Shown here piece after piece: positions 48,652 to 50,090 of a stretch of 64,000 nucleotides of DNA (positions within the stretch are counted from its first letter, which is position 1; each line of letters begins with the position of its first letter). Location of the stretch: positions 35,726-99,725 of IMG/VR virus record IMGVR_UViG_2895791493_000001; one strand, written 5' to 3'. This stretch comes from a virus (Duplodnaviria; Caudoviricetes). The translations under genes were made by a program, and so were the position numbers. The notes under the pieces are model-generated. The model did no database searches. It saw only the letters and a list, made by a program, of their open reading frames with translations, and was not told the origin of the DNA.

Positions 48652-50090
48652 TGGCTCGGCGGCGGGAATCGAACCCGCGCATGCGCCAGGGCCGAGATGT
48701 CAGCGGCCCGCTGCTGTGACGCGGCGGGCCGGGTGAGTGACCGACTGGGGGGCGACGTGCTACATGGCCGGACCTCCACGGTGAACTTCGCCGGGTGTCA
48801 CCGCCGGCGCGGCTGTGGAACGGCCCCAGGGCGGGACCGGTACTCGGAGCGCGCTGGACCTCCCAGCGCGCCCCAGTGCAACAAGAGGGAAAGGGGCGAA
48901 TGACGACGGGCGGCAGGTGATTCCACGCGCTTCCCCGGTGGTGTGGGGGTGCAGGCGCACGCCGCGCCTGCTCGGGTCCCGGCCTCTCTCGGCCTGCTCG
49001 TCACGCTGCTCCCCGCGTTTGGGGTGACCTTCCCGGTGTGCAGGGCCGCGCTGGTGGCGGTTCGCTGCGGGTGGGGATGGCGGTCACGGGCACGCATCAG
49101 GGTGATGCGTTTCGACTGGTACCCAGACCAGCCTGAATCGTCGGCCGGTGCCCAGACCGGCCTGAGTCGAACGGGATGACGCTCAGGCGGGAGCGGCCGG
49201 GCTGTGCACGCCGCTCCCTGCATCCGACCGGAACCGCCGGTCGCGGGACGCGCCTTCCCCATGGCGTCATGTCCAGGCTCAGCGCTTGTCGGGCTACCCC
49301 CGTGCGGGCGGCGCTGAGAACCTCGGATCTGTGGCGGAGCTCGCCAGTGCTCCTGTTTAGAAATTCCGGACCTGATCCCCGGCGCAGGGGGTCCGCGCGG
49401 TCAGCCGGGCGCTGGCGTGGGCAGCCTCCCCGACGTCTCGCTGTCAGCAGGTGGGGCCCCACCTGGAACGGTGCCCGCCAGACCACCTGGCGGGACTTAC
49501 TTGATGCGGGGCGGGCAGGAATCGAACCTGCGTCTCCCCAGCCTCGGGCCGGGGCGCTCTCCCAACAGAGCTACCTCCCCACGCAGCGCCCCGTCCTGGC
49601 GGCGCTGATGGTGTGAGTGTTCGGGCCGGCGTGTCGCGCCGGTTCACGCGCCCGGATCGGCCGGGCGCCAGCCTGCGCTTTGCTGCTCTCGGCCGCGCAG
49701 GTGGCCTCAACACTGGTCATCTCGGCGTCCAGGTCTGCCGTCTCCCCTGCTGTCTCGCGCCTGGGGAGTCGAGGCGCGCCGCGTCACTCCCGGTTGCAGG
49801 AACTTTCCGCCGGTCGGTCTTCGGGTCGTGGGTGTTGCTCGCGCAGCTGCTCGGGTGGCGGTAGCCTGCACGGACCTGCGCCCCCGCGACTTCAGGGGGA
49901 GGTTTCCGTCACGCGCCGTTCCGGTACCACGGGGGTCCGGTCCCGTCCCCGACTGGGGGGCGGGCTGTCAGCTGCGATCGATCTCGCGTTCGTTGTCATG
50001 CGGCTCACCGGGCAAACCCGGATGCAACTGTGGAGGAATGGACCCTGGTCGTCGGGGGCGGTCCGGGGTATCGCCCGTGGGATGAAACGA
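48652..50090 (-). ncRNA. Candidate large structured RNA or RNA cluster downstream of cro
   Basis: ~1.45 kb without a credible ORF; dense hairpins; two T-arm-containing tRNA-like modules. Confidence 0.6.
49507..49580 (-). ncRNA. tRNA-like RNA with zipped anticodon arm
   Basis: GGGGAGG/CCGCCCC acceptor, TA-GCTC-TGTTGGGA-GAGC D arm, GCAGG-TTCGATT-CCTGC T arm; CCCCGGCC-CGA-GGCTGGGG arm; no encoded CCA. Confidence 0.75.

Follow-up and report, generated by a model that had tools for sequence, protein, structure and literature searches.

A conserved non-coding region with predicted RNA structure and tRNA-like elements behind the cro-like gene of a probable Deinococcus phage

A gene-free gap in the immunity region

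The window analysed here, a stretch of 64,000 nucleotides, belongs to a 99,725-base IMG/VR virus record with terminal repeats and a GC content of 70%. We assigned the phage to a Deinococcus host because homologues of its genes were found in Deinococcus genomes. Its immunity region holds a cI-like repressor gene (50506-51075, plus strand) and a cro-like HTH gene of 80 aa (50123-50365, minus strand), the latter identified by Pfam HTH_31/HTH_3 and by homologues at the same position in relatives. Cro lies upstream of a gap of 1.48 kb (48641-50122, minus strand), on the other side of which comes gene X (48233-48640, minus strand). This gene encodes 135 aa, belongs to no family, and has a TTG start at 48640 with an AGGAGG ribosome-binding site ahead, 48233-48651 being the span with that site included. 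Convergent with it is a tyrosine recombinase gene (47261-48232, plus strand), a Pfam and PHROGs integrase. Codon-position GC identified its frame as the true one throughout 47261-48232. The protein has a XerC/D-like layout, yet it scores far under the NCBIfam cut-offs. The stops of the recombinase gene (48232) and of gene X (48233) abut on opposite strands with zero spacer, and 26 nt separate the recombinase start from the next minus-strand gene. With no intergenic space at its start or its stop, the recombinase therefore has no room for an attP adjoining it.

The first-pass annotation had taken some 1.45 kb of this region to be non-coding, and both composition and comparison bear this out. 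GC by codon position was flat from about 48650 to 50120, against GC3 values of 0.9 and above in the flanking genes, and the gap falls inside 48576-50675, the longest interval of the 99.7-kb genome to lack codon periodicity. Mismatches with three relatives fell evenly on all three phases (48/44/41, 24/33/21 and 186/173/175), and indels measured 1-2 nt. In the same kind of comparison, cro, cI, int, gene X and the gene after it had an excess of third-position (wobble) changes, which for g152 was weak when compared with L040, and every indel in these genes was a multiple of three. ORFs of 40-190 codons were numerous inside the gap, on both strands, and zero matches were obtained when they were searched against Pfam and PHROGs. 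In the source annotations, the homologous gap was devoid of gene calls in 3 of the 3 relatives in which it is complete; a further relative, L004, ends inside the gap. Collectively, these data show that the gap is non-coding. Incidentally, we noticed a second low-periodicity stretch in the window (28016-28245), in which ARAGORN called a Leu-CAA tRNA and a 94-nt Gly-GCC tRNA, the Leu call alone being above the Rfam tRNA threshold.

A search with gene X returned no relatives among viral contigs; it did lead to a 96%-identical metagenome contig and to contigs of Deinococcus seoulensis and Deinococcus sp. 12RED42. Further, more distant gap copies came from a DNA search of 125 Deinococcaceae genomes, about 12 of which carry a gene-free gap of 0.7-1.6 kb after cro. 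Wherever neighbours could be detected, the gene order was TPR protein, cI, cro, gap, gene X or another small gene, and recombinase on the opposite strand. A DNA search of a phage database gave no match, and a tRNA-pattern search of viral contigs returned one unrelated tRNA and nothing else. Among close relatives, identity was 88-95% in the gap, 84-87% in cro and 73% in gene X, and blocks of the gap were still detected by blastn/nhmmer where Cro identity fell to 36-40% and that of the recombinase to 55%. Mosaic recombination could inflate this apparent conservation, cI being 97% and cro 87% identical in the same relative. Nine of the 13 relative contigs are 50-111 kb long, and one has a ParB_N protein near the immunity region (L005, 1-523). 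The family probably consists of plasmid-like prophages, whose recombinase may serve to resolve multimers instead of integrating.

Modules along the gap

Motif mapping revealed a fixed order of modules across 12 loci. The first part runs from the terminator through the GGCGATA box, hairpin HP-A, small hairpins, the CAUGACA box and a variable linker to pseudoknot PK1. The middle comprises PK1, a variable hairpin, pseudoknot PK2, hairpins, tRNA-like element 1 and a GUAAGUC box. From there, optional hairpin domains, a GGAGG-spacer-AUG element and tRNA-like element 2 lead up to the ribosome-binding site of the next gene.

Directly 3' of the cro stop lies a hairpin with a U-tract resembling an intrinsic terminator (50085-50123, minus strand; ΔG -16.6 kcal/mol, z -2.85). 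The terminator scanner failed to call it because of the scanner's own loop limit. The hairpin and its T-run are kept in most relatives, with a compensatory change in the inner stem (alignments, by eye). Such a terminator might keep most transcripts out of the gap, and entry would require read-through or antitermination. The gap had previously been placed first in the cro transcript; taken simply, that description does not agree with a conserved intrinsic terminator directly behind cro.

The GGCGATA box and HP-A, the latter with a conserved 13-nt loop, occupy 50042-50075 (minus strand). The box was invariant in the 8 aligned relatives, and the HP-A stem was 82% paired, against 18-51% when partners were slid, with 3 pairs altered on both sides. 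A sigma-70 promoter scan of the gap found none, and the GGCGATA box, considered as a -10 element, was a poor fit by eye. Past HP-A come the small hairpins, whose loops resemble GNRA tetraloops in some relatives. The 5' domain is closed by the single-stranded CAUGACA box (49989-50000, minus strand; 9 of 10 relatives, aligned by eye), in which one base differs in L040. Towards the other end of the gap, the conserved GGAGG-spacer-AUG element (48760-48780, minus strand) has a UAG immediately after its AUG in the present phage, and the reading frames that follow it vary among relatives (0, 11 and 24 codons). The hexamer GAGCAG is present 5 times on the sense strand of the gap, where 1.05 would be expected from the genome, and is absent from the antisense strand. 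A distant relative keeps two of the five sites, and GAGCAG may be a repeated single-stranded binding motif.

The region had also been described as hairpin-dense. The minus-strand stems listed for it were all found, but their density did not exceed chance: single-sequence folding of 150-nt windows against dinucleotide shuffles mostly gave z values from -1.7 to +1.5. Exceptions were 49100-49249 (z -2.6), 49475-49624 (z -2.9), which contains tRNA-like element 1, and 49625-49774 (z -2.2). The caution issued at the time, that high GC inflates chance stems, was justified by these values. Because single-sequence folds lie mostly at shuffle level, the support for structure is comparative. RNAalifold with column shuffles (sense strand) gave z values of -4.7 to -5.5 over positions 353-620 of the gap (nc), about -2 over nc 674-830, -1.9 near nc 990 and nc 1243, and -2.5 over the last 130 nt. 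Over nc 1-350, a part in which distant relatives align poorly, values were close to zero. The covariation sample amounts to about 7-10 lineages, partly related, and some structures were scored on their own source alignments.

The strongest conserved block of the gap lies more than 340 nt beyond the terminator. Two H-type pseudoknots are predicted in the gap. PK1 (49742-49778, minus strand), drawn from the A3 alignment, pair counts and covariance model R1, has two crossing 6-bp helices and the loop AGACAGC, and PK2 (49672-49706, minus strand), drawn from pair counts, has crossing helices of 4 and 7 bp and an A-rich loop. Pairs were counted over 252 cells of the 11-sequence alignment A3, with partners slid by 1-3 columns as controls. 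Taking both pseudoknots together, 90.5% of the 252 cells held standard pairs, against 30-50% in the slid controls; 10 of the 23 pairs were altered on both sides, against 1-5, and 0 of 500 shuffles matched the covariation. Each of the four helices was 84-96% paired with 1-5 double-changed pairs, the 7-bp helix of PK2 having 5 of its 7 pairs changed in this way. The two loops, AGACAGC and the A-rich 12-mer, were nearly invariant. Both structures thus display what is asked of an H-type pseudoknot, that is, crossing helices each kept by compensatory change.

Model R1, which describes the pseudoknot module, matched 12 of the 125 Deinococcaceae genomes with 1-2 copies each, and a phylum sample of 151 genomes added a single weak match outside the family set. 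Looser pseudoknot patterns produced 52 viral and 5 metagenome matches, which were unconvincing under R1 (best 18 and 30 bits). R1 also detected additional copies of PK2 alone in some relatives. Further along their gaps, certain relatives have another PK2-type pseudoknot or another complete module (L104, 2943-3051; L103, 1220-1256, minus strand; L114, 1631-1795, minus strand), and relaxed ARAGORN placed a tRNA-like element about 45 nt past the second PK2 of L044.

Hairpins HP1, HP2 and HP3 (49584-49669, minus strand) emerged from the alignment-fold z and from the fold of HP3 together with tRNA-like element 1. HP3 ends 3 nt from that element, and a hairpin stands 3-4 nt ahead of element 1 in all its forms. 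Beyond element 1 lies hairpin domain II (49223-49449, minus strand), for which RNAalifold predicted 57 pairs. As many as 97.9% of its cells were paired, against 31-47% when slid, with 10 double changes against 0-3, in a comparison that favours the domain, its structure having been derived from the very alignment scored. Domain II has 21 G-U cells on the minus strand, which would be A-C on the opposite strand. These cells, along with the tRNA model hit, indicate that the RNA strand is the minus strand, that is, the direction of cro; the count for the pseudoknots alone (14 G-U against 8 A-C) leaves the strand undecided. Domain II and part of the middle of the gap are missing in L005 and L039, and these modules are therefore optional. 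Covariation among homologues, by which the first-pass annotation had proposed to judge the region, supports the pseudoknots, domain II and the tRNA-like acceptor stems.

Domain III (48915-49135, minus strand) is nearly invariant even in a relative that is 62% identical overall, and for that reason it says little on pairing. A 67-nt piece of the gap (48936-49002, minus strand; nc 1121-1187) is 79-80% identical to a single site in many Deinococcus chromosomes, which sits within a long conserved ORF of at least 763 codons; the match may be fortuitous or reflect a fragment captured long ago. A 29-nt tandem duplication forming two hairpins (49112-49169, minus strand) is specific to this phage, relatives having a single copy. 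Its two copies resemble allelic hairpin variants that occur singly in L005 and L006, each of them self-pairing.

Two tRNA-like elements

An internal tRNA-like RNA and a terminal T-arm/CCA module had been read from the minus strand, and both were recovered. Element 1 (49506-49580, minus strand), found by the Rfam tRNA model and by ARAGORN, is a cloverleaf whose 19-nt anticodon arm is almost fully paired. It scored 46.2 bits against RF00005 at 49507-49580 (minus strand), where the gathering threshold is 29. In the minimum free energy fold, the anticodon arm has 8 bp and a 3-nt loop, and it departs from the 5-bp stem and 7-nt loop with U33 of a decoding tRNA. There is no U33 (C stands at 33 if a 7-nt loop is assumed) and no encoded CCA. 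The element was called as Ser, but its variable region is 5 nt long and the long variable arm expected for Ser is absent. Judged from its sequence, element 1 cannot decode. Its body shares 77-80% identity with stretches located at host tRNA-Arg genes, and in distant relatives a three-arm form (acceptor, one hairpin and T arm) takes its place. In one relative, L046, the gap contains three tRNA-like elements (4429-4475, 4788-4859 and 5612-5664), the middle one being a 72-nt cloverleaf that reached 48.7 bits with Rfam and whose anticodon ARAGORN could not name.

Element 2 (48652-48696, minus strand) consists of an acceptor stem stacked on a T arm and followed by CCA, and the acceptor stem covaries among relatives. 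Relatives end it in CCA or in one base plus CCA, and it adjoins a ribosome-binding site in every relative that possesses it. In L045, ARAGORN called a 73-nt tRNA-Trp whose 3' part overlaps element 2. The stems of the tRNA-like elements were tabulated by script; the MAFFT alignment (A6) was structurally poor. In 10 elements, an acceptor stem of 7 positions sits directly on a 5-bp T stem with no spacer, as in a real tRNA, and the acceptor sequences vary among these elements yet remain paired. The shape of an RNase P/RNase Z substrate, a 12-bp coaxial acceptor/T helix with a T loop, was present in these 10 elements. RNase P, RNase Z and the CCA-adding enzyme need no more than an acceptor stem with its T arm for recognition, and on account of this geometry we propose that cleavage may occur at the tRNA-like elements.

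A candidate processed RNA, its alternatives and its likeness to known RNAs

The reading that we favour, with somewhat better than even confidence, is that the gap would specify an early-operon array of structured RNA that RNase P and RNase Z cut at the tRNA-like elements. In transcripts passing the cro terminator, host RNase P would cut 5' of each tRNA-like element, and RNase Z or exonucleases would trim the 3' side. Cutting would free a pseudoknot RNA of about 540 nt with a protective terminal hairpin, and would also yield a further RNA, about 0.8 kb long, and set the 5' end of the downstream mRNA. The freed molecules would be stable structured RNAs, and soon after derepression they might serve, for instance, as a scaffold that binds proteins or as a decoy. 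Transcription and cleavage of the gap RNA, as well as its action in trans, are what we infer. A large RNA or processed RNA array had been suggested at first pass, with GOLLD and ROOL as examples. Conservation, covariation and module order support a functional structured RNA, and a processed array is plausible given the two tRNA-like elements, but membership of the GOLLD or ROOL families did not hold. A bolder version, which we put forward only tentatively, would make the gap a new class of large multi-domain phage RNA of GOLLD/ROOL rank, so far seen in Deinococcus phage-plasmids only. Its tRNA mimics would recruit the host tRNA-processing machinery for excision, and a double-pseudoknot particle would bind or sequester a host factor in the lysis-lysogeny decision.

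A real alternative remains, although we consider it unlikely, in which the gap is a cis-acting leader only. Its modules would control read-through at the cro terminator and at later ones, or the stability or translation of the downstream early genes, and no RNA would act in trans. The conserved terminator directly 3' of cro fits such a leader, as do the abutment of element 2 on a ribosome-binding site in all relatives having it and the conserved GGAGG-spacer-AUG element, which is a start-stop in the present phage. Yet 1.5 kb of optional, shuffled and duplicated modules exceeds what known leaders need, the tRNA-like geometry suggests cleavage, and the strongest conserved block stands well away from the terminator. 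A leader function is compatible with part of the array reading.

A function at the level of DNA, the gap being a replication origin, a partition site or a recombinase target and its inverted repeats being protein sites, seems improbable to us. The 50-111-kb contigs of most relatives, the ParB_N protein on one of them and the tyrosine recombinase 0.4 kb away would suit it. However, there are no iterons and no AT-rich stretch in the gap (GC 0.70-0.73), and the sole tandem repeat is the 29-nt duplication. Moreover, the crossing helices and T-loop motifs are strand-specific, as are the G-U cells of domain II, and the helices of the gap covary where protein sites would conserve sequence. We give quite low credence to the gap as a decaying tRNA island or junk, kept only through recent kinship. 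The resemblance of element 1 to host tRNA-Arg stretches, the full tRNA calls of ARAGORN at or overlapping the same places in some relatives, and the deletion of parts in L005 and L039 could all be viewed in that light. Such an origin sits badly with the survival of module order and pseudoknot sequences at a Cro identity below 40% and with compensatory changes that maintain the helices, and relaxed ARAGORN revealed no series of tRNA remnants.

It is very improbable that the gap is an attP in which the tRNA-like pieces copy the 3' end of a host tRNA for integration. The recombinase is nearby with no other intergenic space adjoining it, and element 2 does look like a tRNA 3' end with CCA. But its 22-nt 3' end occurs in no tRNA gene across 185,579 species genomes, the one match falling where ARAGORN finds no tRNA, and wherever a genomic copy includes both flanks, no break separates cro, gap, gene X and int. 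The acceptor stems also vary and pair with their own 5' strand, unlike an attP core. Finally, unrecognised small protein genes, to which the many ORFs on both strands and the conserved GGAGG-spacer-AUG element might point, are highly doubtful in view of the missing codon periodicity and substitution phase, the 1-2-nt indels, the lack of family matches and the stop directly after the AUG in the present phage.

Large structured phage RNAs are scarce and their roles still in question, and the gap holds a defined regulatory position, directly after cro in a genetic switch. The gap is carried by lysogens with public assemblies, Deinococcus seoulensis and Deinococcus sp. 12RED42, and its modules are separable, some of them naturally deleted or duplicated, which would make it tractable for deletion, end-mapping and pull-down work.

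The search against Rfam that had been advised gave a split answer: the tRNA family was matched, while GOLLD, ROOL, tmRNA and C4 were not. With cmscan and all 4227 families of Rfam 15 at E values up to 10, tRNA was the only match apart from weak ones at chance level, and the relatives yielded nothing beyond the result for the window. GOLLD, for which this Rfam-wide scan was the sole test, ROOL and OLE were not among its matches. Searching the phage directly for ROOL and OLE gave no match, in a setting where the controls likewise gave none, and a group II intron domain model had no match in the phage. A resemblance to RNase P RNA, suggested by loop motifs, came down to short chance matches to host rnpB (L116) with no significant alignment.

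Phages P1 and P4 form plasmids and have RNA-based immunity in a leader, and the C4 immunity RNAs of P1/P7 and the CI RNA of P4 are processed by RNase P and have tRNA-like ends. Compared with these, the gap is far longer, has pseudoknots and gave no match to the Rfam C4 model in the window. Like tmRNA, it joins a tRNA-like domain lacking an anticodon arm with pseudoknots; unlike tmRNA, it has no tag reading frame and its acceptor stems are local rather than built from distant 5' and 3' ends, and neither the window nor any of 13 relatives gave a tmRNA call with ARAGORN. Bacterial Y RNAs of the YrlA type mimic tRNA (PMC4201824). They are known in Deinococcus and some phages. The gap shares with them a non-decoding tRNA mimic within a non-coding RNA, but has no Rfam Y RNA match, showed no stem recognised as Ro-binding, and forms its acceptor stem as a normal tRNA does.

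MALAT1-mascRNA is reported to be an RNase P-processed RNA with a tRNA-like end (PMC9777231). What the gap has in common with it and with C4/CI is a tRNA-like fold in a longer transcript, whose role in setting ends is in the gap only proposed. GOLLD and ROOL are large, pseudoknotted phage RNAs that are often linked to tRNAs, GOLLD combining a conserved with a less conserved part and in some cases carrying tRNAs in its linker (bioRxiv 10.1101/2024.12.08.627333). The putative gap RNA is likewise large (0.6-0.8 kb or more), phage-borne, pseudoknotted and tRNA-linked, a likeness that is one of resemblance only. It differs in giving no covariance-model match and in its host phylum; moreover, its tRNA partners are non-decoding look-alikes and its place is fixed after cro in the immunity region. 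On the strength of sequence comparison, the gap is a conserved structured non-coding region of uncatalogued kind, which resembles GOLLD/ROOL and the tRNA-like-ended RNAs in outline and is a member of none. If the array reading is true, it would be a bacterial-virus case of tRNA-like punctuation in a long non-coding transcript.
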